Source: Candidatus Wolframiiraptor gerlachensis
GTDB taxonomy: Archaea > Thermoproteota > Nitrososphaeria_A > Caldarchaeales > Wolframiiraptoraceae
Direction: 5' to 3'
Length of the DNA: 64,000 bases
Assembly (NCBI GenBank): GCA_021323375.2
Contig: JAJPCT020000016.1
Span: 32,001 to 96,000, forward strand
The position numbers and the translations under genes were made by a program. Positions 1,827 through 64,000 of this stretch are shown here, in pieces (position 1 is the first letter of the stretch; the number at the start of each line of letters is the position of its first letter). The notes under the pieces are model-generated. The model ran no database searches, had not been told where the DNA came from, and worked only from the letters and a program-made list of their open reading frames with translations.

Positions 1827-1850
1827 CTAGTGGTGGGGATGCCACCGAGC

Positions 1851-2765
1851 TCATAAAGATAGCTTGCGGCCGCGTCGGGGTAGGGCCCGCTCATAGACCA
1901 GTATCGTGAGGATTGTCGCGGCGGCTGAGGCGGCGATTAGTTGGAGCGTTTCATTCAGGCTTGTGAGCGCCCATGGTCTTAGGAGCATTGAGATGGCGAG
2001 CGCGATCATCAGGTAGCCCGAGAAGAGCTTTATCCTCCTCGACCATGCTTCCGAGATCCTCATTCTGCCCAAGGTGTATGCGAAGACGAGGACTATCCCG
2101 AGCATCGGCATGACATATATCATGTTGTAGAGCGCGAGGTAGATGTAATACTCCACATGGCCTATGCCGAGTGATGAGAGGAGGCTCGTATAGTATAGTG
2201 GGAAGCCCGGGGTGCAGGCGAGCTCGTATATGTTGACTGTGAACGCGAGCGCGGCCGAGCCAGCCGCTAGAGCCCCTAGAGAGCTTACGCGTAGAAGCCT
2301 TCTAGCGGATCTACCAACTTGGGCGAGGCTTTTCTCGGATGCGCCTAGGGATGGGCCGAGTCCATGGGCGAAATAGTCCTTCACGTTCAAGGCTCCAGCA
2401 GCCGCCACCATTATCATCACTATGAGGAAGAATGGGCCAAAGCCGCTCAGTATCCTGAAGACGTTGAGTACCGCGGCCATAAAGAAGAAGTAGGCGAGAC
2501 CTGAGATGAGGACGAATATCCCGCCGACTAAGAGGATGCGGGCGCGATCCCTCGCGTATATCAGGATACTGAGGAGGAATGTCAGGATGTAGAAGGCGCA
2601 GGGATTAACGCTATCCATCCCTGCGATCACGAGCGTGAGCCAGAGGAGGTTCTCGCCTGCGTTGCCGTCATCAAGCTGAGCCCCCATAGGGCCTAGCATA
2701 AATGCTAAGGATAACATGATAAGAACCGCTGCGAAGAATCCCCAAGCGATCCGCGAAGCCTTCAA
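1851..2765 (-). CDS. CcdA/DsbD-like membrane protein (cytochrome c biogenesis-type transmembrane domain)
   Basis: Multiple TM helices with paired Cys motifs DSVNPCAF and ELACTPGFP. Confidence 0.75.
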   Translation of the reverse strand: MKASRIAWGFFAAVLIMLSLAFMLGPMGAQLDDGNAGENLLWLTLVIAGMDSVNPCAFYILTFLLSILIYARDRARILLVGGIFVLISGLAYFFFMAAVLNVFRILSGFGPFFLIVMIMVAAAGALNVKDYFAHGLGPSLGASEKSLAQVGRSARRLLRVSSLGALAAGSAALAFTVNIYELACTPGFPLYYTSLLSSLGIGHVEYYIYLALYNMIYVMPMLGIVLVFAYTLGRMRISEAWSRRIKLFSGYLMIALAISMLLRPWALTSLNETLQLIAASAAATILTILVYERALPRRGRKLSL

Positions 2766-2814
2766 CCTCGATGACTTTTCTCAGCCATGGGATCTAGAAA
2801 ATTTTTCCATTCAG

Positions 2815-3297
2815 TTAGAGGTCTTTCTCGGCGCGATAAGCATCCCTGCCACGGCCATAATAATCCTTCAGCCTAGATGCGAAGGTGTATCCGAGTGACT
2901 TATAGAGCCTTATCGCGGGCTCGTTATCAACCGCCACCTCTAGGATCGCCCTCTCGCATCCGAGCTTCCTGAACTCGTTCTCGAGGCTTTTCAGGAGGGC
3001 TGCGCCGACGCCCCTTCTCCGGAAATCCGGCCTAACATCAAGCGTGTAGACATGGCCCACGACTCGGCCGCCGATCTTCTCAACTCTTCCTATCGCTGAG
3101 CCCACTATTTCGCCCTCCCCCGTAACAGCCTTCAAGGGGATGGAGCTTGGATCTATCAGGAGAAGTCTTAGAAACTGTTTCGAGTAGGCATCCCTGCCGA
3201 AGCAGGTTCTCTCCAGTTCATACATCCTCTCGAGATCCTCTAGGCTCGCCTGCTCGATCCTAATGCTCCTCGCTGGGCTCACGTAATTCATCAGCAT
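2815..3297 (-). CDS. GNAT N-acetyltransferase, RimI/Ard1-like
   Basis: HVYTLDVRPDFRRRGVG, LEVAVDNEPAIRLY, YYGRGRDAY. Confidence 0.88.
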   Translation of the reverse strand: MLMNYVSPARSIRIEQASLEDLERMYELERTCFGRDAYSKQFLRLLLIDPSSIPLKAVTGEGEIVGSAIGRVEKIGGRVVGHVYTLDVRPDFRRRGVGAALLKSLENEFRKLGCERAILEVAVDNEPAIRLYKSLGYTFASRLKDYYGRGRDAYRAEKDL

Positions 3298-3423: not shown

Positions 3424-3659
3424 TTATGATATTTCCTTTTTTCTGTGATCCAGAAAATATGTCTTCTCATCACATATATCCTATCTCCCCGCTTATCAAG
3501 CCCATCCCCAGAACTGTTTTCTACACCCCTTGCATATCACTTGAACCATCCCCATTTTCGGGATGGTCCTTAATGAATAAGTGGGGACCCGTGTCGGGGA
3601 TATGTGGGGATGTTATTGCCCGGGGTTCTAGCCGGGATTTTTGTCCTCTAGAATCTTGG

Positions 3660-3764
3660 CGGGATTGAGGGTTTCGCCAGGGCTTATGCCCAGCATTTTA
3701 GGGGAATCCATGATGAGGGCGCTATGTGGCGAGCTCAGGAGCCTGCTTGAGGGAGGTGATATGG
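3660..3764 (+). pseudogene. Decayed homolog of the small ORF at 55509..55814
   Basis: FARAYAQH/(frameshift)LGESMMRALCGELRSLLEG aligns with FCRFYAGWLGNPLMERLRHEIYELLEE. Confidence 0.55.
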
Positions 3765-4635
3765 ATGGCTAGGATCTATTACGTTGATGTCACGATTCCC
3801 AGTGATAGGAAGAAGATACATGCGGGTCTTTGATGGTGGCAGGGTTTTCAGGGTTGGGAGGCTGAGCGAGCTGGAGGATGCCAGCGAGGTGTTCATTGAC
3901 GCGCTGTTTCCGGAGCCATATGAGGAGGTTCTTGAGCTGTTGAGGAGGGGTTAAGGCGTATCTGCTGAAAGATATTACCAAGTTGAGGAAGCTGAGGATG
4001 GAGAACAACTTGAAGAAGAGTGATGAGAATGATGCCATGCTACTTATACGAATTTCAAAAGAGAATTTTAGACCACTAGCGATTGAAGAACTGAGGCTCA
4101 GGATGCGAATGGAGCCGCTGATAAACAAATATGAGCGGATTATGCGATGGAAGAAGACCTTAAAGAGGCTGGTAAAGCGGGTCTTGATTGCAATTTCAGG
4201 GAGGTAGTAAGGCTTATGAACGCGGATAGACAGAAGATATCTGAGGAGGTTATTCGACAGGTGACCTCTCTTCCCATCCATGGTGAGGTTTATAGGAGGG
4301 CCTGCGAAATCCTCGGCGTTAAGAGGAGCGCCGAGCTAGCCATACTGGCGGTAAGGCTACCACTTCATCTACCGATGGTAAGATTGAAAGGACTATTGGG
4401 ATTGATTCCGGGCGGAAATGGAGGGCGATATAACCATGAACTGAGAGCACATATTGCAAGCTTTGCAGCAACTCTCTACATGAATGCTAAAAGACATGTG
4501 AATGCTTCGGATAAAGTTGCTGAGGTCGTTAATTGTCTACCAAAGAAGATGGCATTATGCAAGTTACAGCTAATGACTGTAAAGGCGTTACGGATAGCAT
4601 ATATTATGACTGTGAAGCCGCTGGTCGGCGAGTAG
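3765..4635 (+). pseudogene. IS110/TasR-like RuvC-Nop protein, copy 1 (three frameshifts)
   Basis: MARIYYVD...VFID...KKSDENDA...LKGLLGLIP...YNHELRAH, joined across frameshifts near 3825, 3950 and 4175; N-terminal half closely matches 55831..56691; SD GGAGGTGA upstream. Confidence 0.8.
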
Positions 4636-4758
4636 TAAAAGCCATAAAGACTGGTGAGGTTACACCCGGATTCCCACCATGGAGGATTTCATGAATCCAT
4701 GGATGATTTTATATGGTTCCCCTGCCGGTCTTTATGGCTACGAGGACTCGTCGGCCAG
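4621..4758 (+). ncRNA. Putative structured 3' RNA (nested hairpin) of the IS110/TasR-like element, copy 1
   Basis: Outer stem 4621-4633/4746-4758, middle stem 4641-4654/4725-4738, inner CCATGG...CCATGG stem; followed by a C/T-rich terminator-like tract. Confidence 0.6.
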
Positions 4759-14063: not shown

Positions 14064-14917
14064 TAAGTCCTCACCTCCATTGCTTGGAAATATTCCGCTA
14101 CACTTTCGCCAATGAAGGTAAATCCTACAGCCAATATCATTATCATTAAGCCCGGGAACGTTATTAGCCACCAATATCCTGATAGCAAGTATGGGTGACC
14201 GGCTTTTAAGTCAAATCCCCAGTCTGGTGTTGGTGCTGGAACGCTTAGTCCGAAGAAGCTTAAAGCTGCCTCGGTTAGAACAACGTCTGCCACGCTAAGG
14301 GTGAAGACTACAGTGATTATTGAAATCACATTTGGGAAAATATATCTCACGAGAATCGTCATATGATTGGCTCCTATAGCCCTAGCTGCCTCAACATATA
14401 GCTGCTCCTTTATGCTTAACGTTTGTCCTCTCACCATCCTAAAATATGTAGGAACATAAACGATTGCAATTGCTATTGCCGTGTTGATGATCCCGGGCCC
14501 TAACGCCGCCGCCATAGCTATCGCTAGAATCAAGCTAGGGAACGCATAGATGGCATCCATAATCATGCTTAGGATCCTATCTAGTAAGCCGCCGACATAC
14601 CCTGAGATTAAGCCGAGTGGAACTCCTATTAGCATCGAGATTGCTGTTGAAAGCAAGACTACTATAATGATCGTTCTAGCACCATATACTATCCTGCTCC
14701 ACATATCCTGTCCTATCTTGTTTGTCCCAAGAGGATGTTCCCAGCATGGCGGCTGGAAGCCCGGACCCACGGTTCTCGTGGGGTCGTAGGGTGTTAAGAG
14801 TGGAGCAAATATTGCGAGAAATACTACGAACGTTACCATGCCCACGCCAACCCATCCTAAGGTACTCAACTTGACTTTGGGGACAAGCTTCATGAGAATT
14901 GGCCGAAAGGTGTACAT
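14063..14917 (-). CDS. Peptide ABC transporter permease (DppC/OppC)
   Basis: HPLGTNKIGQD, EAARAIGA (EAA motif), EAALSFFG. Confidence 0.93.
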   Translation of the reverse strand: MYTFRPILMKLVPKVKLSTLGWVGVGMVTFVVFLAIFAPLLTPYDPTRTVGPGFQPPCWEHPLGTNKIGQDMWSRIVYGARTIIIVVLLSTAISMLIGVPLGLISGYVGGLLDRILSMIMDAIYAFPSLILAIAMAAALGPGIINTAIAIAIVYVPTYFRMVRGQTLSIKEQLYVEAARAIGANHMTILVRYIFPNVISIITVVFTLSVADVVLTEAALSFFGLSVPAPTPDWGFDLKAGHPYLLSGYWWLITFPGLMIMILAVGFTFIGESVAEYFQAMEVRT

Positions 14918-17881: not shown

Positions 17882-18421
17882 ATGCTTAGGGTTGGTGGCT
17901 CAGTTATTGAGCTTGTTAAGGGTGATATCACGGAACTTGAGGTTGATGCCATTGTTAATGCTGCTAACTCGAGCCTTAAGATGGGTGGCGGTGTTGCTGG
18001 AGCCATCCTAAGGAAAGGTGGATGGAGCATTCAGGAGGAATGTGATAGGATTGGATACTGCCCGGTTGGTGGGGCCGTGATCACGGGCGCTGGAAGGCTT
18101 AAGGTGAGATACGTGATCCATGCGGTTGGCCCGAGGATGGGCGAGGGCGATGAGGATAATAAGCTCCGCAACGCAACCCTAAACTCCCTAAAGCTCGCGG
18201 AGCAGCATAATGTCAGGAGCATAGCATTCCCCGCGATCTCAACCGGGATATTTGGCTTCCCGAAAGATAGATGCGCGAAGATAATGCTGAGGACGGCGGT
18301 GGAGTATCTCCAGAAGGGCAGCAGGATCGAAAGGGTCATCTTCTGCCTCTATGACGATGAAACCTATAGGATATTCGAAGAGGAGCTTGAGAGGATAAAG
18401 AGGGAGCTCGGACAGGCTTAG
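17882..18421 (+). CDS. Macrodomain protein (O-acetyl-ADP-ribose deacetylase / ADP-ribose binding)
   Basis: GDIT, AIVNAAN, GGGVAGAI, IHAVGP, FPAISTGIFG. Confidence 0.93.
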   Translation: MLRVGGSVIELVKGDITELEVDAIVNAANSSLKMGGGVAGAILRKGGWSIQEECDRIGYCPVGGAVITGAGRLKVRYVIHAVGPRMGEGDEDNKLRNATLNSLKLAEQHNVRSIAFPAISTGIFGFPKDRCAKIMLRTAVEYLQKGSRIERVIFCLYDDETYRIFEEELERIKRELGQA

Positions 18422-24627: not shown

Positions 24628-25533
24628 TTATCTCGTGGGCTTTGGTCGAGTTTTCTCACGCTTCCTCTCAATCACTTCTCCCCACATGAGCTTTATCTCC
24701 CCTATCAGCTCATCCACCTTGAGGGCACCCTTCTCGGTAATATAGGTGGTTATCAGCCTCGGCCGCAGGATCTCAAAATAAGGGTTCAGGCATCGGAGCT
24801 TGGCTTCCCCGACATATACCTCCTCCTCTGGATGCCTCTCTAGACCGAACCCGTAGATCGCCGCTTTCCAGAGATCCGTCACGATATTCACCGGAACCCC
24901 AGCATCCATCGCTGAGAGGGCGATCATCTTTGAGCCTATCTTGTTCGCGATCGAGCCATCATCGAGTATCGCATCACACCCCAGCACCACCGCATCAACA
25001 AGCCCCTGGTCCATAACATGTGATGCCGCCGCATCGACTATTAGTGTCACATCATGTCCCCTAGCCGCCAGCCTCTCAGCAAGCCTCCTCCCCTCATAGC
25101 CTGGCCGCGACTCAGTAATATACACGCTAATATCCCTGCAGTTTTCGAGGGCGCTGGCAACAGTTGAGCTATAACTATGGGTTAGAATGCTCCTATATCT
25201 CCTGATCATCTCGGAGGCGTTTTGCACAACGCTTCTCAGAGAGCTCTGGTACTCGTTTATGCACCTCCTCACAGCGTTCTCTATCGCTTCTCCCACGGAT
25301 TTTCCAGCCGAGACCTCCTTCTCGATTATCGAGCCAATCATGTGCGCTATGTTTGCTATCGAGGGCATGCTCGGCCTAGCTTCTGAGAGAGCCTTCACAA
25401 GCCTCCTCACGTCTTTGAGGCTCACGGGCTTCTCGAGAAGCTTCATGAAGGATACTGCGGCCCTGATCGTGAGCTGTGACGCGCCGCTCACCGAATCCTC
25501 CTTTATCTCCCTCACCAGATCCGCGATGTTCAT
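24628..25533 (-). CDS. eIF-2B alpha/beta/delta-family protein (ribose-1,5-bisphosphate isomerase-like)
   Basis: SGAS, RPSM, THSYSSTV, ESRP, NKIGS, NPYFE. Confidence 0.85.
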   Translation of the reverse strand: MNIADLVREIKEDSVSGASQLTIRAAVSFMKLLEKPVSLKDVRRLVKALSEARPSMPSIANIAHMIGSIIEKEVSAGKSVGEAIENAVRRCINEYQSSLRSVVQNASEMIRRYRSILTHSYSSTVASALENCRDISVYITESRPGYEGRRLAERLAARGHDVTLIVDAAASHVMDQGLVDAVVLGCDAILDDGSIANKIGSKMIALSAMDAGVPVNIVTDLWKAAIYGFGLERHPEEEVYVGEAKLRCLNPYFEILRPRLITTYITEKGALKVDELIGEIKLMWGEVIERKREKTRPKPTR

Positions 25534-37803: not shown

Positions 37804-39108
37804 AGCCCTTCTTTTCCCAATCGTTATCCTCGCTGTTATGAGCCTCTCCCCCATGAAGAGCCATGAGCTTAGTAGGAGGAGCAGTGCCGCGAATCCCAGC
37901 ATCACCATTATTGATGTGATCGCGGATGTGATATCGCCCGCGAACCCACCCTGTATCGCGAGGAATAGGTGTGTGAAGGGATCTAGGAGGAGACCTATCC
38001 TGACTCCTATTGGGAGGCTCTCGAGGGGCGCGAAGATTAGGATGAAGAATGGGGGCATTAGGAGTGGGAATGTTATGACCCCGACGAGTTGCTGGGCGCT
38101 CCTGACATCGCTCCCGAGGACGCCGACAAGGAGCCCTATACATGTCATCATCACCATCGCGATGAATATCGCTGAGACGAGTATCGGGATGAAGATGGGG
38201 GATGGCCAGAGGTCGATAAGTGTTATGCTCACCTGCTGGCCTGCGGCAACCTCCTCGACCGGGATCCGCGCCATCATGCTCCCCGCGATCATCAGGCCGT
38301 AGACCCCGAAGCCGACCAGGAATGAGAATGTGCTTAAGAGGACTATAACAAATGTCCCCAAGAGCTTGCTGAGGAGTATTGTTATCCTCCTAGCCGGGAT
38401 CGTTAGGAGCAGCTCAAGGGTCTTGGACTCCTTCTCGAGGGCGATGCTTGTCGCCGAGACCGTGGATGCATAGCTCGCGACCATCACCGCGACTAGTGGG
38501 AGGCCGAAGAGCGTTGTCAGGAAGGTGGCGGCAACGGCGGAGGCAGGAGCCCTCAATATCCTGTCAAGATAAAGCACCATGGAATTCTCTAGGATCGGTT
38601 TCTCGAAGAACCTTGGATCAATACCTCCCCCATGAACTCTCTCAGCCAGAGACTTGAATATATCGAGTAGGATTGTTGAGATCCGCTGGCTCATGCTGAT
38701 CTCGGAGATCGAGGCGGATCTTATGGGGTAGATCGTCATGATCGTGCTCTGGATGCCGGATGTGAAGTTTCTCGTGAAGCCGCTCGGTATTATGATCACG
38801 GCATTGAGCTCCTTTCCGGCCGCCGCCCTGGCGCACTCATCCTCGGATGAGCACTCCACCTTGATGGTCCTAATCCCCTTTTCCCTGAGCAGCTCCGGGA
38901 GATGAGTAGATGTTAGCCATGTCTTTTCTAGGTCAGCTATCCCGATTACAAGGCCCACTTCAGCCCTCTCCATCGCCGCGCTCATCCCAAGGCCAGTCAA
39001 CGCGCCCATTATCGGGAAGACTATTAGCGGGATTATTATCGCGCCTACTAGTATGCTCCTCTCCATCAGGAGCTCCTTAACCTCCTTCTTAAGTAATGGC
39101 CCGAGCAT
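37792..39108 (-). CDS. ABC-2 type exporter permease (NatB-like)
   Basis: KEVKEL, IALEKESKTLELLLTIP, multiple TM helices. Confidence 0.85.
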   Translation of the reverse strand: MLGPLLKKEVKELLMERSILVGAIIIPLIVFPIMGALTGLGMSAAMERAEVGLVIGIADLEKTWLTSTHLPELLREKGIRTIKVECSSEDECARAAAGKELNAVIIIPSGFTRNFTSGIQSTIMTIYPIRSASISEISMSQRISTILLDIFKSLAERVHGGGIDPRFFEKPILENSMVLYLDRILRAPASAVAATFLTTLFGLPLVAVMVASYASTVSATSIALEKESKTLELLLTIPARRITILLSKLLGTFVIVLLSTFSFLVGFGVYGLMIAGSMMARIPVEEVAAGQQVSITLIDLWPSPIFIPILVSAIFIAMVMMTCIGLLVGVLGSDVRSAQQLVGVITFPLLMPPFFILIFAPLESLPIGVRIGLLLDPFTHLFLAIQGGFAGDITSAITSIMVMLGFAALLLLLSSWLFMGERLITARITIGKRRASGA

Positions 39109-39109
39109 C

Positions 39110-39826
39110 TTAAGCCGCCTCCACCAGCTTCGCGAAGACCTCCTCGAGATTCTGGGCCCGGTGCTCAGCCTTCAGCTCATCAGGCCTGCCCTCCGCGATG
39201 ATCCTCCCGCCGCTCATGAATGCAACCCGGTCACAGAGATACTCTATCTCGAACATGTTGTGGCTGGAAACTATGACGGTTGCGCCGCTCTCCTCCACGA
39301 ACCTCCTTATCCTCCTCCTGATATGCACGGCGTGGATGACGTCTAGACCGGAGGTCGGCTCATCGAGTATCGCAACCCTCGGCCTCAGCATTAATATCGC
39401 TGCGAGGATTATCCTCCGCCTCATACCCTTGCTATAGGATCCCATGGGCTTCCTCAGTGCATCGCCGAGCCCCGCGATCTCCATACCCTCCTTGATGCAT
39501 TCCCGACCCCTGCCATGAACCTCGGCCATGAAGCTGAGAAACTCCAAGCCTGTCAAGTGCCTGTAAACCCCGGCATCCTCCGGCAGATATGCGATGATTC
39601 TCCTAACCCTGTCCGGCTCATCCCTGACGCTGTGACCCATTATGATAGCGTCACCAACATCCGGCCTAAGGATCGTCGCGAGAATCCTGAGAGTCGTCGT
39701 CTTACCGGCACCATTCGGCCCAATCAAGCCGAAGATCTCCGACTCATCAACCTCAAATGAGACGCCCTTCAGAACCTCGAGAGACCCAAACCTCTTAACG
39801 AGACCGCTGGCCACGACAGCCCTCAA
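39110..39826 (-). CDS. ABC exporter ATP-binding protein
   Basis: GPNGAGKTT, YSKGMRRR, LDEPTSGLD; start placed at TTG 39826. Confidence 0.9.
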   Translation of the reverse strand: MRAVVASGLVKRFGSLEVLKGVSFEVDESEIFGLIGPNGAGKTTTLRILATILRPDVGDAIIMGHSVRDEPDRVRRIIAYLPEDAGVYRHLTGLEFLSFMAEVHGRGRECIKEGMEIAGLGDALRKPMGSYSKGMRRRIILAAILMLRPRVAILDEPTSGLDVIHAVHIRRRIRRFVEESGATVIVSSHNMFEIEYLCDRVAFMSGGRIIAEGRPDELKAEHRAQNLEEVFAKLVEAA

Positions 39827-40274
39827 GCATAAATCCCTTGAGGCTTGTAATCTTTTAGGATTTCTATTTTTCTCATATTGCTCCTTGCCTCTCAAATCTT
39901 CTACTAGGGCTAACTGGATTTTGCATGCATTATACATTACTTTACTTTAATATTCATAACTCATAATATCAGCCATCATAAGAGGCTTGACACCATCTCC
40001 CGAGTCTTGAATCTCCATCAACACGTCCGGAACTGCCTCGATCGTCCTATCTTTTCTTTATTGCTTCTATTATGGAAATTCCATGGAAGCATGGGCGGAT
40101 TATCGATGAAAAGAACTTGAAGAACTTGATAAAAAAATAGACCCTACTACAACCTCAAGGAACCATTAAGGCTCATAGGTAATGATGATGGGGAAGAAGT
40201 TTATGAGAAGACCTATAAAATCTTTTGGGACAAAAGGAGCGTTGAAGAAACTATCAAATTATATTGTCGATAGG

Positions 40275-40567
40275 GTTACCACTCCATTTGCTGGTAGTAA
40301 GGTTGGGGATTTCTGAGATGAGATCGATTCTGGGTGGAGGTGGAGGGTGATGAGGGTGATATACTCGTAAGTTAAGATCACATGTTGCGGCTATTGTAGC
40401 AAATCTTTACGCGTATGTTAGAAGGAATGTAAGCGTTTCGGATGAAATTGCCAATGTTGCTGAGTGTATGTCCAAAAATCAGGCGATAGTTAAATTGAGG
40501 CTGACGACTTTGGAGGCGTTAAGAAGAGCATACCCATGACAAAGCCGCTGGCCAGCAAGTTCTCGTA
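40275..40567 (+). pseudogene. IS110/TasR-like protein, copy 2 (3' remnant only)
   Basis: LPLHLLVVRL...YTRKLRSHVAAIVANLYAYVRRNVSVSDEIANVAECMSKNQAIVKLRLTTLEALRRAY aligns with the copy-1 C-terminus. Confidence 0.72.
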
Positions 40568-40693
40568 GCCATAAAGGCCAGCAAGCCAAGCCTTAAACCA
40601 TCCATGGATTCATAAAGATAGAAATCCATCCTCCATGGTGGCAGCTTCCGCCAGCTCTACTGGCCTTTATGGCTTTTAATACCCGCCGGCCAG
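40548..40693 (-). ncRNA. Nested hairpin cassette, copy 2, inverted relative to its gene
   Basis: Its reverse complement aligns colinearly with 4621..4758 while the flanks AAGCCG and TCCCACC keep the copy-1 orientation. Confidence 0.6.
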
Positions 40694-40759
40694 TCCCACC
40701 CTCCATTTTTGCCTTAGCCTTAGTATGTTTAGATTGGATCCTAACTTTGTCTGAACATG

Positions 40760-40824
40760 TAAAAGAGCTTCTGTCAACTTAGCAAGTAATCTCTTCAAGT
40801 CCTTTATCTTGACGTATGCGCTGA
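40760..40824 (-). pseudogene. Decayed duplicate of the tpiA 3' end
   Basis: SAYVKIKDLKRLLAKLTEALL versus tpiA SAYVKAKDPKKLLAEMVEAAL (about 23913..23976). Confidence 0.6.
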
Positions 40825-40863
40825 TATAAAGATGCTTTTCATCCCTAACTCTATTATCCTGAT

Positions 40864-40968
40864 CCTTCTCAGAAATATAGCTGGTTATCAGCCTCGGCCA
40901 CAGGATCCCAGACTATGGGTTTAGGCATTGGAGCTTAGCTTCCTCAACATATACCTTCTCCTCTAGAT
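40864..40968 (-). repeat. Decayed duplicate of the eIF-2B-like gene 3' region
   Basis: About 105 nt aligning ungapped to 24729..24833, roughly 85% identical by eye. Confidence 0.8.
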
Positions 40969-41907
40969 CTTGAGCTTCCGCCAGTCGCCCCTGATCTCGG
41001 GTTCGCCCCTAAGCCTTCTCAGGTAATTGTGTGCGGATAGTGCAGCTATCGCGCCCTGAGCTGCTGCTATCACGGCCTGCTTGTATGGCATATCGCAGAC
41101 GTCGCCGGCCGCGAAGACTCCCTCCCTGCTCGTTCTGCCAAGCCTGTCCGTTACAATCTCGCCGCGCTCGTTTAGCTCGATGAATCCCTTGAGCCACCCC
41201 GTATCCGCCGCGTATCCGAGCTCCACGAAGACACCATCAACCTCCAGCTCAATTCTCTCTCCCCTCTCAACTCCCCTCAGGATCAGCTTTCTAACCACGA
41301 TATCGCCGACCACTTCCTCCACCCTCACGCCCGTCATAACCTCCGCGCCTAATCCTCGCAGCTCCCTCAGGAGCCGATCATCCTCCCTAGGCCGCCCCGA
41401 GTAAATCACATAAACCATGTTATCGTAGTTTCTGAGTATCGTGGCAGCCTCATGTGCTTGATCGCCCCAGCCGACTACGGCCACCCTCCTGCCCCTGTAT
41501 AATGGCGCATCGCAGATGGCGCAGTAACTGACACCCCTACCCGCGAAGACATTCTCACCCGGAACACCCATCTTCCTCGGCTTCTTCCCGATAGCGAGGA
41601 TCAGCGCCCGCCCCTCATAGTCACCGCCCCTGCACTTGACCCTGAAGCCGCCCTCCACTTCCTCAACGCCAATCGCTTCATCATAGGATATCTCGGCCCC
41701 AAACTCTCTAGCCTGCTCGAGAATACTGTTCACGAGCTCGAAGCCCGAGACCGAGGGCGAGGCCGGGAAATTCTCTATTCTTGGTACTGTGAGAAGCTGG
41801 CCGCCAATATCCATCGTAACAACAAGTGTTCGCAGACCCTGTCTAGCGGAGTATAGCGCCGCGGTAAGGCCGGCAACACCGCCGCCCACAATCAGTACAT
41901 CATACAT
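40963..41907 (-). CDS. trxB: Thioredoxin reductase
   Basis: GGGVAGLTAA, GVSYCAICD (CxxC), GVFAAGD. Confidence 0.92.
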   Translation of the reverse strand: MYDVLIVGGGVAGLTAALYSARQGLRTLVVTMDIGGQLLTVPRIENFPASPSVSGFELVNSILEQAREFGAEISYDEAIGVEEVEGGFRVKCRGGDYEGRALILAIGKKPRKMGVPGENVFAGRGVSYCAICDAPLYRGRRVAVVGWGDQAHEAATILRNYDNMVYVIYSGRPREDDRLLRELRGLGAEVMTGVRVEEVVGDIVVRKLILRGVERGERIELEVDGVFVELGYAADTGWLKGFIELNERGEIVTDRLGRTSREGVFAAGDVCDMPYKQAVIAAAQGAIAALSAHNYLRRLRGEPEIRGDWRKLKI

Positions 41908-41964
41908 CGCTAGCCTACTTATTCGGCGGAAGCTATAAAGCATGCTCTAGAGCCTTGGAGAAGG

Positions 41965-42162
41965 ATGGAATTGAGCGCGCGAGCAATCCTCATCCCCAAG
42001 ATACTTTTGAAGCTCGCGGCCGCTGCAGCCCTAGCCATACTAGCATACTATGCTTATGAGGGCATATCAGCAGCCCTATCAGCCTCACCCATCTTCGCCG
42101 CCATATTCCTCACACTCCTCACAGCCGCAATAATCATAGGAATCATAAGCCTCCTCACATGA
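41965..42162 (+). CDS. Small two-TM membrane protein
   Basis: 65-aa hydrophobic ORF with GGAG upstream. Confidence 0.55.
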   Translation: MELSARAILIPKILLKLAAAAALAILAYYAYEGISAALSASPIFAAIFLTLLTAAIIIGIISLLT

Positions 42163-42366
42163 GAATACGTCGAGCAACAGCTATGCTTAACTACAAGCTG
42201 CGAAAGGCCCATACAAGAAAACAGTTAAACAACGTATTTGCATGCGTTCTACTAAAGACGTTGAGCATTTTTCGAAAAACGTAATAATGGTACCATATCC
42301 CTACAAATTGATGCGTCTTGCTGAGCGATTTTAAACACTTATTAACATCCCCCGACGCATTAATTC

Positions 42367-43248
42367 ATGAAGTATTGTCCGAAGTGTGGTAAGAAGCTTG
42401 AAATTCAATCACCTTACTGCCCATTTTGCGGGGCACTTCTTACAGAGCATCTTCAAGCACAGTATCATGCTGAGAAGAAGAATAGGAGAAAGGCGATAGC
42501 CGCGATCCTAGGGATCTCGGGCCTACTCGGGCTGGGGCTCATCGCATTCAGATACTATGGGGATGAGGTATACGAGTTGCTGAACAGGATTACTGGAGCC
42601 GGAGGGACAACTACGGTTACCAAGACCATAAAACCCACCGAGGCATCAGAGACAAGCCCACTCTCTACGACAACCTATTCAGCCGAGATAACCTCATCAA
42701 GCGCCTGTACCTCATTAACATCCTCACCAATGAGCACGACAGCAACTTCACCCTCCATATCAGGAAGTATTGGAACAACATCAACCGAGATAATATCGAC
42801 AACTAGGACTACTCGCACGACGGCTGTCCCAAGAATACCTGATAGAGACTGGGATCGCATAATATTCCCCTATATTGTGGTTGGTGGGCAGACGGCATAT
42901 GAGGGGTTTGAGGTTATGGTAGAAAATCGTGGAAACGCGCCATCATTCTACACTGTGATGGAGCTTTACAGTAGTTCCAGGGCGATGAACTTAGACCGCC
43001 CGCTGAACAGCTTCAGCCTAGTATGGCGCAGGGTTACAACCCTGAATGCAGGCCAGCGTATCGAGATCGATTTCTCAGAGCTACCCCTAAGCCATGAGGC
43101 CCTAGTATGGGTATGCTATGACCCGATCTTGGATCCGAAAAGCTTCAGAATGGATAGCGATGTCCAGCTCAGGAGCATCTATAGGAGAAGCTATGATAGG
43201 GATAGGCATGTGATGGCGCTTGGCAGATCAGGAATGGTGGAGGATTAG
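42367..43248 (+). CDS. Membrane-anchored protein: N-terminal zinc ribbon, TM helix, Ser/Thr-rich linker, unknown C-terminal domain
   Basis: CPKCG...CPFCG, one TM helix, long S/T tract. Confidence 0.75.
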   Translation: MKYCPKCGKKLEIQSPYCPFCGALLTEHLQAQYHAEKKNRRKAIAAILGISGLLGLGLIAFRYYGDEVYELLNRITGAGGTTTVTKTIKPTEASETSPLSTTTYSAEITSSSACTSLTSSPMSTTATSPSISGSIGTTSTEIISTTRTTRTTAVPRIPDRDWDRIIFPYIVVGGQTAYEGFEVMVENRGNAPSFYTVMELYSSSRAMNLDRPLNSFSLVWRRVTTLNAGQRIEIDFSELPLSHEALVWVCYDPILDPKSFRMDSDVQLRSIYRRSYDRDRHVMALGRSGMVED

Positions 43249-48984: not shown

Positions 48985-50169
48985 TTACCAGTACTTGATC
49001 CCCCTATTCTTAATGTAGTCGTAGACCTTTTTCGCGGTCTTCTCCATCCCGAAGGCCTTAAGGTGTAGAAGGGTCTCCGCATACGCCTTGCTCCTTATCG
49101 CGTTCTTAGTCTCGTCTGATATCTTGTCGAATTCGTTGAAGAACTGTTTTAGCGCGAACTTAGAGTTCTCGACGAATATTTCAGCCTCAGGCACCCCCTC
49201 CTTTCTATAGCTCTCAATAACCCACTTGTAGACCCTCCGGTATAGTTCTGGCTCGTAGATTCTCAAGATATCATAGACCATGAGCATATAGATTGTCGCG
49301 ACGTTGCCCTTACCTATCACCCCCTTCGGGAATTTTTCTGCAATGAGGTGGAGTGGTGTCCCGCTCACGCCATGCTGAGCAACTCTAGTTGGATACCCGT
49401 TATCCCATAATGCTCGAACTATCTCAACTGTGCGCTGGATGTTTATCCCGAGCTGTGGTATTATATTACCCTCCGCGTCCACCGAGACGCCATGTTTTGA
49501 GCCATTGTTTATCGCGAGCCAGTGGAGGTCGACTCCATTCTGCTTCATGCTCTTCACGTAGTGTAAGGCCTCCTCGACAGTTGTTAGCTCTGTCTTGCCT
49601 ATCTCGCCGACCTCGCCCTCCCTACCATAGTTCCTGTGCCCTATCAGCTCATCTAAGTACCTGAACATCTCTGTGCCAACCTCAATTATCCGCTTAAGTT
49701 GCTCAGGCACGGTATCCTTGGTTAGGTCGAAGAGGTATGAGGCGTCTATGGCGAAGCTTGTGAACCCTGCCTCAACCCTAGCGGCAAGCTCTCGCTTAAC
49801 GTTCTCGATCTCCTCATCGGTGCCCTTCCTGATCACGACGTGATCTGCGTGGAGGACGTAGCCATACCAGCCGACATTCTCCGCAGCCTTTCTCACGCGC
49901 TCGGCGAATGTTTTAGGTGTCAGGCCGGTATAACCTCCCTTCAAGTTCATCTCGGATAGGGCTAGCTCAAGGATCACCACGTTCTCAGTATCCTTGGCCG
50001 CCTTCAGAACCCCCTCAATCACCTCGAGGGTAACCCTTGGATTGACCGCGAGGACTATCTCCCTCGGCGGCGTCAAGGCCTCGAAGAGAACATTCCCCGG
50101 TATCGGGGGCTTGGGATCCTCGAAAAATGCCACATGCTCTGGTTTCATCCAGTCAGCCACCTCAATCAC
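48985..50169 (-). CDS. Class II fructose-bisphosphate aldolase-family protein
   Basis: LHADH, GFTSFAIDAS, EGEVGEIG, NGSKHG, QHGVSG, KGNVAT. Confidence 0.85.
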   Translation of the reverse strand: MIEVADWMKPEHVAFFEDPKPPIPGNVLFEALTPPREIVLAVNPRVTLEVIEGVLKAAKDTENVVILELALSEMNLKGGYTGLTPKTFAERVRKAAENVGWYGYVLHADHVVIRKGTDEEIENVKRELAARVEAGFTSFAIDASYLFDLTKDTVPEQLKRIIEVGTEMFRYLDELIGHRNYGREGEVGEIGKTELTTVEEALHYVKSMKQNGVDLHWLAINNGSKHGVSVDAEGNIIPQLGINIQRTVEIVRALWDNGYPTRVAQHGVSGTPLHLIAEKFPKGVIGKGNVATIYMLMVYDILRIYEPELYRRVYKWVIESYRKEGVPEAEIFVENSKFALKQFFNEFDKISDETKNAIRSKAYAETLLHLKAFGMEKTAKKVYDYIKNRGIKYW

Positions 50170-50367
50170 AAGTTAGCGCTCCTATAATTTAACACTTTGC
50201 ATATAGGAAAAGGCTAAATACCATGCTCCAGCCGAGGGCGGCCATTTTAACATCGAAAAAGCATCCCCTACAGCCCCTTTTTAGCCCCCTCTCCTTAGAC
50301 TTAGAGGGCTGCATCGAGGGGTTAAGCCCTCATGATTTTTATGGTGGATGGGCGTTTTGATCCTGAA

Positions 50368-51195
50368 ATGGCTCAAGGTGTGGTCGTGATCGGCTTAGGC
50401 GAGGTTGGTAAGCCCATCTACGAGATCTTGAAGGAGAGCTTTGCAGAGGTATATGGTTATGATCTCAATCCATCCGCCCGGGTTGATGAGCTGGAGAACA
50501 TCCCCACCAGCATTGATGTGATCCATATAGCCTATCCATTTAAGGGATTTAATGACTTCGTGGACTCGGTGGCTGGTTATGCGTATAAGCTCGGGGCTGA
50601 GACCGTTATCGTGCATTCGACAGTAGCTCCGGGCACTACCCGAATCATCCAGTCGAGGATCGAGGCCTATGTAGCCTATTCGCCGGTAAGGGGCAAACAT
50701 CCGTATCTCAAGGATCATCTGATGTTCTGGCCCAAGTGGGTCTCAGCAGTGAATAAAGAGGCCTTGGAGCATGCTAGGATCCATCTCGAGCAGGCAGGCT
50801 TCAGGGTGAGGGTTGCCCCCGATCCCGAGTCTCTCGAGCTGGCGAAGCTCTGGGAGACGGTGTATAGGGCCGCGATGATAGCATGCTGGCAGGAGGCCCA
50901 TAGGATCGCGAGGATGTTCAAGGCGGATATCGGCGTCATCGCCGAATTCATCTCCGAGGTTCATGAGGTGCTTCGCGATAGGCCGGTCTACTACCCGGAC
51001 TTCATAGGAGGACACTGCCTAATACCCAACACCCGGATACTTCATGAGATAACAGGCTCGGATCTCCTAGAATTCATCCTCCAATCAAATGAGAAGCGCG
51101 CCGAAGAGATGCGTGACGAGAGTATCGCAAGAGAGGTGGAGAAGGTTAAGAGAATCTGGCTAAACCTTGCCCCCAAGGAGTATTATCGCATGTAG
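50368..51195 (+). CDS. UDP-glucose/GDP-mannose dehydrogenase-family protein (short form)
   Basis: GLGEVG, HSTVAPGTT, ELAKLWET, IGGHCLIPN. Confidence 0.8.
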   Translation: MAQGVVVIGLGEVGKPIYEILKESFAEVYGYDLNPSARVDELENIPTSIDVIHIAYPFKGFNDFVDSVAGYAYKLGAETVIVHSTVAPGTTRIIQSRIEAYVAYSPVRGKHPYLKDHLMFWPKWVSAVNKEALEHARIHLEQAGFRVRVAPDPESLELAKLWETVYRAAMIACWQEAHRIARMFKADIGVIAEFISEVHEVLRDRPVYYPDFIGGHCLIPNTRILHEITGSDLLEFILQSNEKRAEEMRDESIAREVEKVKRIWLNLAPKEYYRM

Positions 51196-54608: not shown

Positions 54609-54894
54609 TCAACCTACCTCCCAGAACCTCTTTCTACATGCTTCGCATACTACCTGAACAATCCGGCTATCTACTATGACCGCATAACTCCTAACCCTCT
54701 CCTTAAGCCCCCTCTTTGTTAAAGCTATAAGACTTCCACATAGATCACATACCGCCTCGTACCTCTCAATATGTAAGACCTCTCTGATCCTGCCTTTCTT
54801 ATCAACAGTCGTGATTATCAAGAGGTCTTAAGGCGAATTCCTGAACCCTTGGGTCTCCATCAATAGGTGCTAGGATGATCATCCTAGCATCCAT
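54609..54894 (-). pseudogene. Small Zn-finger protein (CxxC...CxxC), probably frameshifted near 54822
   Basis: VCDLCG...VCEAC; ATG at 54894 (MDARMIILAP) is out of frame with the body. Confidence 0.45.
54868..54889. repeat. Perfect 22-bp palindrome TGCTAGGATGATCATCCTAGCA
   Basis: Exact self reverse-complement, read directly. Confidence 0.9.
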
Positions 54895-54895
54895 C

Positions 54896-55219
54896 CTAGA
54901 CCACTCCCACCACTTTATCCCCCTCTAGGATCACTGTCTCACCACCCCAGACACTCCTAACAAGGCTCTTGGTCTCCCTCATATTCTCACTTAAATACGC
55001 GGAGTCCCCATACTCGTTGAAGGCACTAATAGTGAAGATCTTAGACTTGGGGTCATAGACTACTGTAACGGCTATGCATCCGAAGCCCGGCCTGAACCTG
55101 CTCCTAAGCCTTCTTATCCGCCTATAACACTCCTCGTATACCTTATCATACGCCCGACACCTGACAAACAGGCCGTCTATGCCTTTTGGAAGGGGCTTCT
55201 CGGCTGGCCTGCCGCACAC
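54896..55219 (-). CDS. Hypothetical protein (virus/plasmid-like, possibly 5' truncated)
   Basis: 107-aa ORF in the accessory island; start abuts a divergent ORF. Confidence 0.55.
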   Translation of the reverse strand: MCGRPAEKPLPKGIDGLFVRCRAYDKVYEECYRRIRRLRSRFRPGFGCIAVTVVYDPKSKIFTISAFNEYGDSAYLSENMRETKSLVRSVWGGETVILEGDKVVGVV

Positions 55220-55221
55220 GT

Positions 55222-55311
55222 ATGCATGTTTTCGGCCTGCTGATACTGCTGACGATCCTAGCCGTCGCGCTGTACTCCTACCTGCTCATCTACGGGGCGA
55301 TTGCGGCATGA
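55222..55311 (+). CDS. Tiny single-TM peptide
   Basis: MHVFGLLILLTILAVALYSYLLIYGAIAA*. Confidence 0.35.
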   Translation: MHVFGLLILLTILAVALYSYLLIYGAIAA

Positions 55312-55508
55312 GGGCGTTGAAGAGGATTCTATCTAAGGGTCGCCGAGGCCGTCGGCGAGGCCCTGCCGTCGGGGATCATAGACCCCTAGATCCTCTGGTG
55401 GATCATCCTATCGCTAATGCTGCCATTTATTGCTGGCCGGAGTGATGTGGATGGCCGAGAAGGGATTTATAGTTTATGGAGGCTCCGACCTAAGGAGGCT
55501 GCTGAGGG

Positions 55509-55814
55509 ATGTTGAGGATCGGTATGGCGGCGCGTTCGACGAGCTCGGGCCCGGGCGCCGCCCAGGACTTCAAGCATATGATCGACTGCGTTGACGGCTT
55601 TCTGGATCTCTTGGCGGATCCGAGGGCGGACTCCAGGGTCAAGCTGATAGACTATGCGAGGATCAGGGATGATGTCTTCGAGTTCTGCCGGTTCTACGCC
55701 GGGTGGCTGGGAAATCCATTGATGGAGAGGCTGAGGCATGAGATATATGAGCTGTTGGAGGAGGCCATAGAATGGTGGGGAGAGCAGGATGTCCTCGACA
55801 TCATGGGGTGCTGA
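55509..55814 (+). CDS. Small helical accessory protein upstream of the IS110/TasR-like gene
   Basis: 101-aa ORF; homologous relic upstream of copy 1. Confidence 0.65.
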   Translation: MLRIGMAARSTSSGPGAAQDFKHMIDCVDGFLDLLADPRADSRVKLIDYARIRDDVFEFCRFYAGWLGNPLMERLRHEIYELLEEAIEWWGEQDVLDIMGC

Positions 55815-55830
55815 GGAGGAGGTGATATGA

Positions 55831-56691
55831 ATGGCCAGGGTCTATTATGTTGATACCGCCATTCCCAGCGACAGGAAGAAGAGAAGGAAGAATAAGACGC
55901 ATGTGGTCTTCGACGGGGATAGGACGTTTAAGGTGAATAGGCTGACAGAGCTGGAAGACGCCGGCGAGGTATTCATTGACACGTTATTCCCGGAGATCTA
56001 TGATGAGGTCGTGGAATTGTTGAGGAGGGGTGTTAGGGTGTATCTGCTGAAGGACGCCACCAAGCTGAAGAGGCTGAGAATGGAGAACAATTTGAAGAAG
56101 ACTGATGAGAATGATGCTATGCTACTTTCAAGGATTCCTCAATGCAGCTTCAAGCAGATCACATTCAAGGAAATGATACTGTTAAGACTAATCGAGGAGT
56201 ATGAGAGATATGTTGAGTGGCGGATGGTCATCCGGCGATGGTATCAAATCCACCCATTAAACTCCTTCAAAGAGTGTATTAGAGAACTCCGCTCCCTATG
56301 CGAGCGCCATGCCCGCAAGATTATTAGAGAAGTTAGGAATGATGAAAGCTATGGAACAATATATAGAGCGGCATGTGAAGCGCTGGGGATCGAGAATAGT
56401 GTTCATGTCGCGATATTAATAGTAAAGCTACCACTAAACTGGAAACTCGCCAAATTAAAGGGATTGCTGGGACTAACGCCACACAGCAAAAAACACAAAA
56501 AATATAACCATAAACTACGCGCAAATCTTTCAAACATTGCCGCGAATATTTACTTGAACTACAAGCGATTAAAGACTAAACCAGAGATTCTACAAGGACT
56601 CGAGAACCTTCCAATGAGGAAAACAATTTTTCGGTTAGAGATAAGGATACTGAAGGCATTGAAGAGAGCCAAAGTTGCCGGCGAGTGGTAA
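55831..56691 (+). CDS. IS110/TasR-like protein (RuvC-like DEDD-type domain, coiled coil, GLxP/Nop-like domain), intact copy 3
   Basis: Acidic tetrad D8, D50, D92, D95 (KKTDENDA matches IS110 KTDxxDA); LKGLLGLTP...YNHKLRANL; 286 aa; SD GGAGGTGA. Confidence 0.75.
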   Translation: MARVYYVDTAIPSDRKKRRKNKTHVVFDGDRTFKVNRLTELEDAGEVFIDTLFPEIYDEVVELLRRGVRVYLLKDATKLKRLRMENNLKKTDENDAMLLSRIPQCSFKQITFKEMILLRLIEEYERYVEWRMVIRRWYQIHPLNSFKECIRELRSLCERHARKIIREVRNDESYGTIYRAACEALGIENSVHVAILIVKLPLNWKLAKLKGLLGLTPHSKKHKKYNHKLRANLSNIAANIYLNYKRLKTKPEILQGLENLPMRKTIFRLEIRILKALKRAKVAGEW

Positions 56692-56794
56692 AAGCTACGC
56701 CAGTAGGTTGAGGTGAATTTCCGCCATAGACTTATAAGTCTATGGTGGTTGCGCGGGAGTTCCTACTGGCGTAGCTACTAGAACCGCCGGCCAG
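56674..56794 (+). ncRNA. Nested hairpin cassette, copy 3
   Basis: GCCGGCG/CGCCGGC outer stem, perfect 14-bp middle stem 56694-56707/56762-56775, inner CCGCCATAGACTTA/TAAGTCTATGGTGG. Confidence 0.6.
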
Positions 56795-56876
56795 CCACCC
56801 CCTTCTCTCCCTTTTTCCCCACCTAATGCATAAATGCTAATAGCAGTTGATACGTAGAAATAGTATATCTTAAAGA

Positions 56877-56968
56877 GGGCCGGTAGATCAACCAAGAGAG
56901 CTTCTAAGCCCCACCAAAACATCCACCTTACACATAGGAAGTCATAGGTTCAAATCCCGTCCAGTCCA
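56877..56968 (+). pseudogene. Decayed tRNA-Ala-like pseudogene with a ~19-nt insertion in the D-arm region
   Basis: GGGCCGGTAGATCA...GGTTCAAATCCCGTCCAGTCCA aligns to 45174..45246; stems broken. Confidence 0.7.
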
Positions 56969-57153
56969 ATTTTAATCACCAGCCTACCCTATAATAAAAA
57001 GCTAAAGCTTTAGAAAATTCGCCCCCTCATTATTTTATCAAAGCTCATGTATGGCTAGAGTAAAAAAGATAACCAGAACTCCCTTGGCACAGGTCATTCT
57101 CAGCGAGCCCAAGATTTAAGGATATACAGCGCCCCCGGTGCTTTCCTAATGGC

Positions 57154-63123: not shown

Positions 63124-63609
63124 ATGGCTGCTCGGGAACTTCCCGTGACCCGTGAGATAATTGAGCTGATTAGGAGGCCGAGTGTGGTTGGCTTGGCGAC
63201 TCACCGGCATTTGCCACATGAGAGGGCGATATACATGAGGCATGGTAGATGCGGCTTCGCGATCGACGTGCTGGTGGAGGAGAATGGTGTTAGGAGGCTC
63301 TACTCCGTCCTCGTGGAGGCAGAGGTGAACATCGGCGATAGGAGGGAGTTTAAGTCATTCATGGAGCTCGGCGGCATAATCCGCTACCAGCTCTCCGAGA
63401 AGATCGGCGACACGTTCAAGATAACAAGGAAGGAGCTCAGCTACAGGGATGGAGAGGAGCTCTTCCATCAAGTCGATCTTGTTAGAGCCGCATTCTACGA
63501 GAAGTATCGGGAGCTCAAGGCCAAGGCCGGGGTTGAACCGGCGAAGATAGAGGAGGAGATCTTCCACCAGGTTGGAATCAGGCCCGAGGAGATGCTTCTC
63601 GGAGTATAA
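63124..63609 (+). CDS. Hypothetical protein
   Basis: 161-aa ORF from ATG 63124 with TTAAAT box upstream; no motif recognised. Confidence 0.7.
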   Translation: MAARELPVTREIIELIRRPSVVGLATHRHLPHERAIYMRHGRCGFAIDVLVEENGVRRLYSVLVEAEVNIGDRREFKSFMELGGIIRYQLSEKIGDTFKITRKELSYRDGEELFHQVDLVRAAFYEKYRELKAKAGVEPAKIEEEIFHQVGIRPEEMLLGV

Positions 63610-63613
63610 GCTG

Positions 63614-64000
63614 ATGATAGGGCTCGCGCTCGCGGAGAGGGCCGAGGATGCTAAAAGGATTGCTGAGAGGCTGGTGAAGTCTCAGGAGTATAGGCTCGTC
63701 AAGTCATTCAGGCTTATTGAGATTGAGACAGAGATAGGCTATGTCTCTGTGGCCGCTAGGGAGGATGAGTTCGTCGAGAGAGGCGATGCGCTGGCGGCAT
63801 GTATGCATTATCCGCGTGCTGGCATAAGGTTCCTCGAGAATCTCCTAGAGTCCGAGGATCTCGTGAAGACTTTGATGAATCTCGACCTCTTCCTTTCCGG
63901 CGCTATAGTTGATTATGAGAGGGTTGTCTTGTTCAGGGATCATGTCGGCCATATGCCCCTAGCATATGCTAGACATGGTAGGTCGCTCATAGCGGCCTTG
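63614..64000 (+). CDS. Probable asparagine synthetase-like protein, N-terminal part (runs off window)
   Basis: Open to window end; LFRDHVGHMPLAY resembles the GATase-II RDxxGxxPLYY motif. Confidence 0.55.
   Translation, partial: MIGLALAERAEDAKRIAERLVKSQEYRLVKSFRLIEIETEIGYVSVAAREDEFVERGDALAACMHYPRAGIRFLENLLESEDLVKTLMNLDLFLSGAIVDYERVVLFRDHVGHMPLAYARHGRSLIAAL

Follow-up and report, generated by a model that had tools for sequence, protein, structure and literature searches.

Which way does a guide RNA gene face when the hairpin that encodes it is nearly a palindrome, and what can turn it around? The question is raised by a 64,000-nucleotide stretch of contig JAJPCT020000016.1 from the archaeon Candidatus Wolframiiraptor gerlachensis (positions 32,001 to 96,000 of the contig; this stretch is called the window, and plain coordinates refer to it). 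The window holds three copies, numbered 1 to 3, of a multi-copy element in which a recombinase gene is followed by a long hairpin. The 146-bp hairpin cassette of copy 2, at 40548-40693, has its interior reverse-complemented, and both of its flanks keep their orientation. A first-pass annotation had described it as an invertible segment and offered two readings: an on/off or guide-switching inversion, or the passive inversion of a palindrome. We found that the cassette is a guide RNA gene which was inverted in place, and that the flip is rare and is probably, at odds not far above even, a by-product of the palindrome.

A hairpin cassette inverted in place

On the plus strand, copy 2 reads ...AAGCCG CTGGCCAGCAAGT TCTCGTA GCCATAAAGGCCAG ... 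CTGGCCTTTATGGC TTTTAAT ACCCGCCGGCCAG TCCCACC. The canonical hairpins of copy 1 (4621-4758, plus strand) and copy 3 (56674-56794, plus strand) have the opposite arrangement: A/GGTAAAA, where the upstream gene ends in its stop codon, lies 5', and TAC(G/T)AG(G/A) lies 3'. Copy 2 is colinear with both once it is reverse-complemented. Its internal-loop half TCTCGTA (40561-40567) is the reverse complement of TACGAGA, the 3' half in canonical copies, and TTTTAAT (40674-40680) reverse-complements the 5' half A(G/T)TAAAA of canonical copies, where the recombinase stop codon normally lies; both halves now read on the minus strand. The flanks are not inverted. Upstream is the AAGCCG end of the gene remnant, and downstream are TCCCACCC and then a T-run, matching all other copies; the conserved tail TCCCACCCTCCATTTTT, which follows every canonical hairpin, stands in its usual plus-strand orientation at 40694-40710. 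The gene itself is a decayed 3' remnant of a DEDD recombinase gene (40261-40547, plus strand, identified by tblastn and translation), about 95 codons long with four stops and a frameshift.

The orientation call for copy 2 is not marginal, despite the quasi-palindromic hairpin. With a profile hidden Markov model (nhmmer) built from 17 hairpins in canonical orientation, the minus strand of copy 2 scores 88.2 bits and the plus strand 30.3, and a covariance model gives 96.7 versus 49.3. RNA folding agrees: copy 1 folds at -67.7 kcal/mol on the plus strand versus -55.0 on the minus strand, copy 3 at -70.9 versus -63.7, and copy 2 at -59.4 versus -82.8, its minus strand having a z-score of -9.1. Copy 2 folds better on the minus strand because G-U pairs turn into A-C on the wrong strand, and since the fold energies follow the flip, its G-U pairs lie on the minus strand, which is now the RNA-competent one. 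The flipped cassette with co-oriented flanks is thus present as the first-pass annotation quoted it.

The breakpoints can be placed in the outer stem. The 7x7 internal loop and everything within it are inverted, and AAGCCG upstream and CCCACC downstream are not, so both exchanges lie inside the 13-bp stem, one in the left arm CTGGCCAGCAAGT (40548-40560) and the other in the right arm ACCCGCCGGCCAG (40681-40693). In the orthologous hairpin of a congeneric genome (G005, locus L056), stem pair 11 is G-T, and the plus strand of copy 2 has A and C there, the swapped complement, which puts pair 11 inside the inverted segment. Pairs 1-8 and 10 of the ortholog are Watson-Crick and therefore uninformative, since such pairs are invariant under inversion, and pair 9 is ambiguous. 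It had been proposed that the whole hairpin, bounded by the CTGGCC...GGCCAG stem, was inverted in place, and this holds. The same proposal confined the breakpoints to the outermost ~6 bp, on the strength of a G-T pair at position 7, but this pair is younger than the split of the two lineages; the breakpoints are resolvable only to the 13-bp stem.

The inversion at copy 2 arose in situ. Window positions 38880-39832 are 94.4% identical to positions 1-953 of the G005 locus (L056, on G005:C1), and 40970-42456 are 94.8% identical to its positions 1650-3135. The two hairpins align on opposite strands only, at 81% over 148 nt, and the G005 hairpin is canonical. Both contain the copy-specific loop TAGAG(C/T)TGGCGGAAGCT(G/A)CC, which is found in no other copy. 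The site is empty in three other genomes (G002, G011 and G008), where it reads ...TTTAAGGCTT GAGCTT CCGCCAG...; in the window, the core GAGCTT and the right target half CCGCCAG stand at 40972-40984 (plus strand), where synteny with G005, G002, G011 and G008 resumes. The minus-strand loops of copy 2 contain both halves of this target. The guide segment at 40587-40598 (minus strand) reads GTTTAAGGCTTG, the left half of the ancestral target (TTTAAGGCTT plus G) as seen in the empty sites, and the guide segment at 40643-40654 (minus strand) reads CTGGCGGAAGCT, complementary to the right half AGCTTCCGCCAG; the two fits are 12/12 and 12/12 nt. Since the loops match the target halves of their own site and the loops of the G005 ortholog, the flipped cassette is the resident guide, inverted after the lineage of the window's genome (G000) split from that of G005.

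A second flip was found in G005, at G005:C54:4973-5110, where the sequence reads ...AAGCCG CTGGCCGACGAGT CCTCGCA GCC...GGC TTTTACT ACTCGTCGGCCAG CCCCACC. The syntenic locus in the window's genome (G000:C22:49628-49764) is canonical; compared with G005:C54, its flank is 92.6% identical, its gene 73.9% identical on the same strand and its hairpin 88% identical on the opposite strand. Opposite lineages are flipped at the two loci, so these are two independent events, one per lineage. The arms at G005:C54 form a perfect 14-bp inverted repeat, which is uninformative on the position of the breakpoints, and in both events the whole cassette was exchanged within the outer stem. Flips are not restricted to dead copies, and such a restriction is what the first-pass annotation would have held against its proposal: at G005:C54 the recombinase frame stays open over 230 aa, as far as the contig end. 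The same annotation expected a flip to change the last residues of the protein. This is moot at copy 2, where only the gene remnant is left, and holds at G005:C54, where the protein finishes ...KPLADESSQP* and the flip would have altered a tail of ...KPLAGE*.

Flipped cassettes are rare. The genome of the window holds 30 hairpin loci (26 full-length and 4 truncated, with two matches of E > 0.1 excluded), and 29 of these are canonical relative to the CCCCACC tail, copy 2 alone being flipped. A covariance-model search of 41 related genomes, with stricter filters, found the hairpin in G000, G002 and G005 only; none of 9 loci is flipped in G002 and one of 12 in G005, which brings the total across the three genomes to 2/51. 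Hairpins follow the gene in 74 of 80 metagenome contigs that carry it, with 0/74 flipped, and the remaining 6 contigs end at the gene. Five more loci come from genomes of Candidatus Geocrenenecus (one), a Nitrososphaerales metagenome-assembled genome (one) and a Nitrososphaeria metagenome-assembled genome (three); four have the hairpin, 0/4 flipped. In 76 genomes of the order, a search for the flipped 3' junction that allowed up to 3 mismatches gave nothing beyond the two known places. Partial flips at the inner stems are absent among 47 full-length hairpins, each oriented by its best strand, and the interiors are all colinear. Precise excision of the cassette has left no sign in the metagenome contigs either, since 74/74 gene copies with downstream sequence retain it.

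Orientation in populations was read from Logan contigs of sequencing runs, and such contigs drop minor variants. The flipped form is bridged at both junctions in contigs of four runs from four studies. Run X1, possibly the source run, covers the whole stretch with 0 differences; X3 covers 39803-40999 with 5 differences and 1 gap, X4 covers 39725-40999, and X5 covers 40206-40764 with 1 difference. Run X4, from a hot spring, has an additional contig (depth 13.6) in which 39829 is connected with 40667 on the opposite strand and the 12-nt apical insert of copy 2 is missing. Because this contig has its own single-nucleotide differences in the flank, it is assigned to a second strain, in which the ABC-ATPase flank is joined directly to a 5'-truncated canonical hairpin. 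The flip thus appears fixed in the strain of the window, and the contigs that bridge the copy 2 cassette in all four runs are flipped.

The guide RNA gene and its recombinase

What, then, is the cassette that was flipped? Its shape is common across subfamilies: the 13-bp outer stem is followed by a conserved 7x7 internal loop and a second stem, and these by a large variable internal loop and an apical stem. Compensatory changes are seen in 18 of the 28 predicted pairs. Rfam holds no family for it, and the sole Rfam match in the window is a tRNA. A comparison of filled and empty sites defines one complete element of ~1.6 kb at G000:C1 ~49579-51175 (L163 2479-4076), with empty sites at G002:C62 ~14622-14626 and G011:C18 ~18147-18152. 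It consists, in order, of a small leader open reading frame (ORF), the recombinase gene, the hairpin and a ~62-nt tail, and GAGCTT stands on both sides. When its hairpin (C1:50975) is compared with the empty sites of G002 and G011, the 3' strand of the variable loop equals the left target half CTTAGCCGAG, and the 5' strand is the reverse complement of the right half GCTTCTTTCT(G)ACCCT at 15/16 positions. At copy 2, as described above, the loops fit both halves of their own site in full. A structured non-coding RNA whose loop strands match both target strands around a short core follows the logic of bridge RNAs and seekRNAs, as set out in the portions of PMC11208160 and PMC11187229 that deal with it. 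The cassette therefore lies inside the element, as a bridge/seekRNA-like guide RNA gene, and is not the element's end.

The match between guide and site is also seen in numbers. An exact reverse-complement match of at least 10 nt between the hairpin interior and its own downstream flank occurs at 22 of 57 distinct metagenome loci, versus 64 of 3192 mismatched pairings (~2%), a significant excess. The upstream-flank version of the test was not significant (4/26 versus 47/650), probably owing to the left end, whose distance behind the leader ORF varies. Within the window's genome, one of 26 copies had a match between its 5' loop and its own downstream flank (16 nt) above the longest match to another copy's flank (13 nt), and copy 2, at 13 nt, equalled that longest cross-copy match. 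Inspection by eye found no convincing donor-binding loop matching the element ends, which were taken from one full element and one remnant. The guides differ from copy to copy and fit their own downstream flank in metagenome loci L077-L156; at two loci (L084 and L102) the guide-matched flank resembles the 5' end of a tRNA gene, and several copies in the window's genome adjoin tRNA genes.

The idea that the outer stem is the right end of the element plus an inverted copy of it, and so a natural cut site for the transposase, does not hold: in the one element with mapped ends, filled and empty sites show the right end ~62 nt past the hairpin and GAGCTT at both ends, so that the stem is internal. 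The copy 3 locus was unusable as an empty-site pair for end mapping. G005 is without 2.4 kb there (window ~54709-57142), a composite indel; the block holds other ORFs, the leader ORF, copy 3 and its hairpin, and a tRNA-like fragment at 56923-56968, and is a composite insertion and not a simple element.

The gene preceding the hairpin encodes a protein of ~290 aa. It is intact in copy 3 (55831-56691, plus strand, 286 aa), where the hairpin overlaps the stop codon, and frameshifted into three ORF pieces in copy 1. A tblastn search with the copy 3 protein found ~16 further loci in the genome (1.28 Mb, 27 contigs), and at six of these the full-length frame is open. By sequence, the family falls below the Pfam and NCBIfam thresholds: the IS110 DEDD domain PF01548 scores 15.4 bits where 29 are required, E <= 0.1 being reached by 14 of 35 relatives, and NF033542 scores 11.7 where 140 are required. 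A profile search of the protein versus PDB sequences gave no meaningful match, and the relation appeared in a fold search. The AlphaFold (AF2) model has a mean predicted local distance difference test score (pLDDT) of 91.5 and a predicted template modelling score (pTM) of 0.85. Its best PDB fold matches in Foldseek are the recombinases ISCro4 (9t56) and IS621 (8wt6/8wt9), then TIGR-TasR, with E from 5e-7 to 1.5e-5 and TM-scores of 0.52-0.60 over ~320 columns, a full-length match that includes the C-terminal half. An alignment of 35 proteins supports the N-terminal RuvC-like DEDD domain found in IS110/IS1111-type recombinases: E46, D50 and D92 are invariant, and D8 (at least 90% of rows) and D95 are nearly so. 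The same alignment has an invariant S190 and a nearly invariant Y225, and the 'TPxKxK' stretch has no conserved serine. That stretch is, we assume, where IS110 enzymes carry their catalytic serine. By predicted fold, the protein is structurally an IS110-type DEDD recombinase, a point in favour of the first-pass annotation, which had cited Piv, an IS110-family invertase. In most copies the small leader ORF, of at least two sequence types, lies directly before the recombinase start (for example at 55509-55814 and 3426-3750), and its 3' end extends into the recombinase ribosome-binding site GGAGGTGAT.

The element thus resembles the IS110/IS1111 bridge-RNA (seekRNA) elements IS621, ISCro4 and ISEc11, as presented in parts of PMC11208160 and PMC11187229. 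They share a DEDD RuvC-like recombinase of the same overall fold and a short core at both ends. The non-coding RNA follows the gene, as it does in the IS1111 group, its loop strands match both the top and the bottom strand of the target, and the enzyme belongs to a class able to invert DNA. The differences are that the protein here is only ~290 aa and below the family thresholds, that the RNA hairpin overlaps the stop codon, that a small leader ORF precedes the recombinase, that guides vary among copies of one genome, that a donor-binding loop was not found by eye, and that no subterminal inverted repeat was identified, with ends mapped in one complete element. No report of a flipped bridge RNA or seekRNA gene was found in open-access papers and bioRxiv, supplementary files being outside the scope of that search.

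How the cassette may have been turned around

The explanation we favour, with a probability of about 0.55, is a rare passive exchange between inverted repeats across the outer stem, a by-product of the palindrome and not a regulatory switch. Copy 2 is a decayed insertion of an archaeal IS110-like RNA-guided element, and the 146-bp cassette is its guide RNA gene, a long hairpin with variable loops that pair with both halves of the insertion site. The cassette was inverted in place, by exchange between the 13-bp arms of the outer stem, once the G000 and G005 lineages had separated. So much is shown by the data, together with the recurrence and rarity of such flips; the passive route is an inference. 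It would most likely be template switching by DNA polymerase, or short-homology recombination between the inverted repeats, as in the 'spacer inversion' of hairpins. The guide RNA gene now lies on the strand opposite the dead recombinase gene. A transcript in the sense direction would contain the hairpin in antisense form, with A-C mismatches, complemented guides and reversed conserved loops, and the flipped copy would lose its cis guide.

Hairpin-loop inversions occur in plastid DNA. Spacer inversion by template switching is documented in yeast for arms longer than 9 bp, in the sections of PMC8604942 devoted to it, and the present case carries its signature: the spacer is exactly reverse-complemented between inverted arms that hold the breakpoints (13 bp each at copy 2), the flanks are untouched, the sister lineage has the ancestral orientation, and the event recurs independently at different loci. 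The passive route is favoured because it is known for arms of this length, because the event is rare and apparently fixed, and because the outer stem is not the element's end and has no GAGCTT core. The passive inversion that the first-pass annotation offered is thus the best fit among its readings, and an enzyme remains a candidate cause.

Several points weigh against this explanation. The outer stem was used in both events, and the inner stem (12-14 bp, with a shorter spacer) and the apical stem never, among 47 full-length hairpins; a process driven by length and distance would be expected to favour the inner repeats, although with n = 2 this argument is weak. The spacer here is ~120 bp, versus 2-5 bp in the template-switch inversions described in those sections of PMC8604942, and it is a structured RNA gene with inner inverted repeats of its own that went unused. 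Six or more intact recombinase genes lie in the same genome, and IS621 is able to invert DNA, according to the parts of PMC11208160 on its activity, and therefore a capable enzyme is at hand. The orientation was also read from contigs, in which a minority of the other orientation could be hidden.

The element's own DEDD recombinase, supplied in trans from intact copies and possibly with a guide RNA, may instead have inverted the stem-bounded segment as an off-pathway side reaction, which we consider possible but unlikely. The predicted fold matches the bridge recombinases IS621 and ISCro4, both genomes with a flip hold intact copies, and the passages of PMC11208160 on inversion describe programmable inversion by IS621 where two sites face in opposite directions, and name Piv as an invertase homologue. 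The use of the outer stem in both flips and of the inner stems in none also fits an enzyme, as does the small palindrome GCCGGC within each outer-stem arm. However, the outer stem is not the end of the element, since the right end was mapped ~62 nt beyond it, and the stem is without the GAGCTT core that is repeated at the ends; inspection found no guide loop complementary to the stem; flips are very rare despite many active-looking copies; and precise excision of the cassette is unseen. That an IS110-like recombinase flips its own guide RNA gene at the outer stem, the exclusive use of this stem being its footprint, is on this evidence a doubtful claim. A programmed reversible switch, in which the flip turns the guide RNA off or changes the expressed strand or guide and so regulates transposition, seems improbable, and of these three mechanisms it is the least supported. 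Inverted repeats do bound the cassette, as in invertible segments, the flipped RNA folds excellently on the minus strand, stem changes since the G005 split preserve minus-strand pairing, and the flipped copy at G005:C54 lies behind an open frame. But orientation does not vary commonly among related loci or strains: contigs of four runs show a single orientation per strain, and the flipped fractions are 2/51 and 0/74. Copy 2 retains no gene to regulate, the stem is not the element's end, and the antisense of a guide, by our reasoning, specifies no simple alternative target. The on/off or guide-switching inversion proposed at first is thus not supported.

Two further explanations would do away with an inversion at this locus. 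The flipped hairpin might have come from another copy, by ectopic gene conversion, or from a nested insertion in reverse; the genome does hold ~30 similar hairpins as potential donors, and the gene remnants of G000 and G005 at the copy 2 locus no longer align at the DNA level. This is very improbable, since the guide loops of copy 2 fit the target halves of their own locus and the loops of the G005 ortholog, occur in no other copy of the genome, and are flanked by a tail and a gene end that are contiguous and canonical. An assembly artefact, with the inverted-repeat region traversed the wrong way, would be conceivable in a metagenome-assembled genome with a quasi-palindromic region, and the first-pass annotation had named it as a concern. 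It can be given hardly any credence here, for the perfect inverted arms are at most 14 bp long, contigs of X3, X4 and X5, from other studies, bridge both junctions in the flipped form with 1-5 differences, and the second flip was found at another locus in a separately assembled genome. Arms of 14 bp are below usual assembly k-mers.

Two more known systems are close to this one. Piv-type invertases, in the accounts given in parts of PMC11187229 and PMC11208160, are DEDD-family relatives that invert a segment between inverted sites. Unlike the present case, Piv flips a gene segment reversibly within populations, varying pilin, whereas here the orientation appears fixed per strain, the flip is rare, and the enzyme gene of copy 2 is dead. 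The ssr9 module of ISPpu9/MITEPpu9 is likewise a small-RNA module downstream of an IS110-family transposase gene, and it is a separable unit that also occurs solo. The sections of PMC12288879 on this module describe movement by minicircle excision between direct A'/B' boxes and no inversion, whereas the cassette here was inverted in place and its precise excision is unseen.

What the locus offers and further observations around it

The flip is a known kind of event, a hairpin-bounded inversion, in a new setting, a bridge-like RNA gene. It is a clean natural case, dated by two orthologous locus pairs, in an RNA gene whose strand matters. Its main value is that it brings to light a compact (~290 aa) archaeal relative of the bridge recombinases together with its guide RNA. 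This element family is of more interest than the flip itself: the guide RNA lies at the 3' end of the recombinase gene, across its stop codon, a leader ORF precedes the gene, and the guides differ between copies and can be read directly against empty target sites. About 30 copies are present in a hot-spring archaeal genome of ~1.3 Mb. If the recombinase did cause the flip, such enzymes would act on the DNA of their own guide gene. Self-inversion would then uncouple the guide from the messenger RNA and either silence the targeting of that copy or bring the RNA under different transcription; an RNA-guided transposon would thereby have a new means of being switched or retired.

Some smaller features of copy 2 and of the other copies were also seen. 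Read on the minus strand, GGATTTCTATC (40609-40619) is an insert of 11-12 nt relative to the G005 ortholog, which makes the apical stem longer and gives copy 2 the best fold energy among the three copies of the window, though its gene is dead. The tail of copy 2 is separated from the GAGCTT core by 258 nt (40711-40968) that G005 does not have, and the last 105 nt of this spacer (40864-40968) match part of a minus-strand gene (24729-24833) at 86% identity. Elsewhere in the genome, L163 16404-16579 (G000:C1 ~63503-63678) aligns to G005:C11:10011-10188 on the opposite strand, at 88% over ~175 nt. This stretch adjoins two oppositely oriented copies of the element, with tRNA-like sequence just downstream of the hairpin there, and it may be a tRNA or a larger inversion or rearrangement between element copies.

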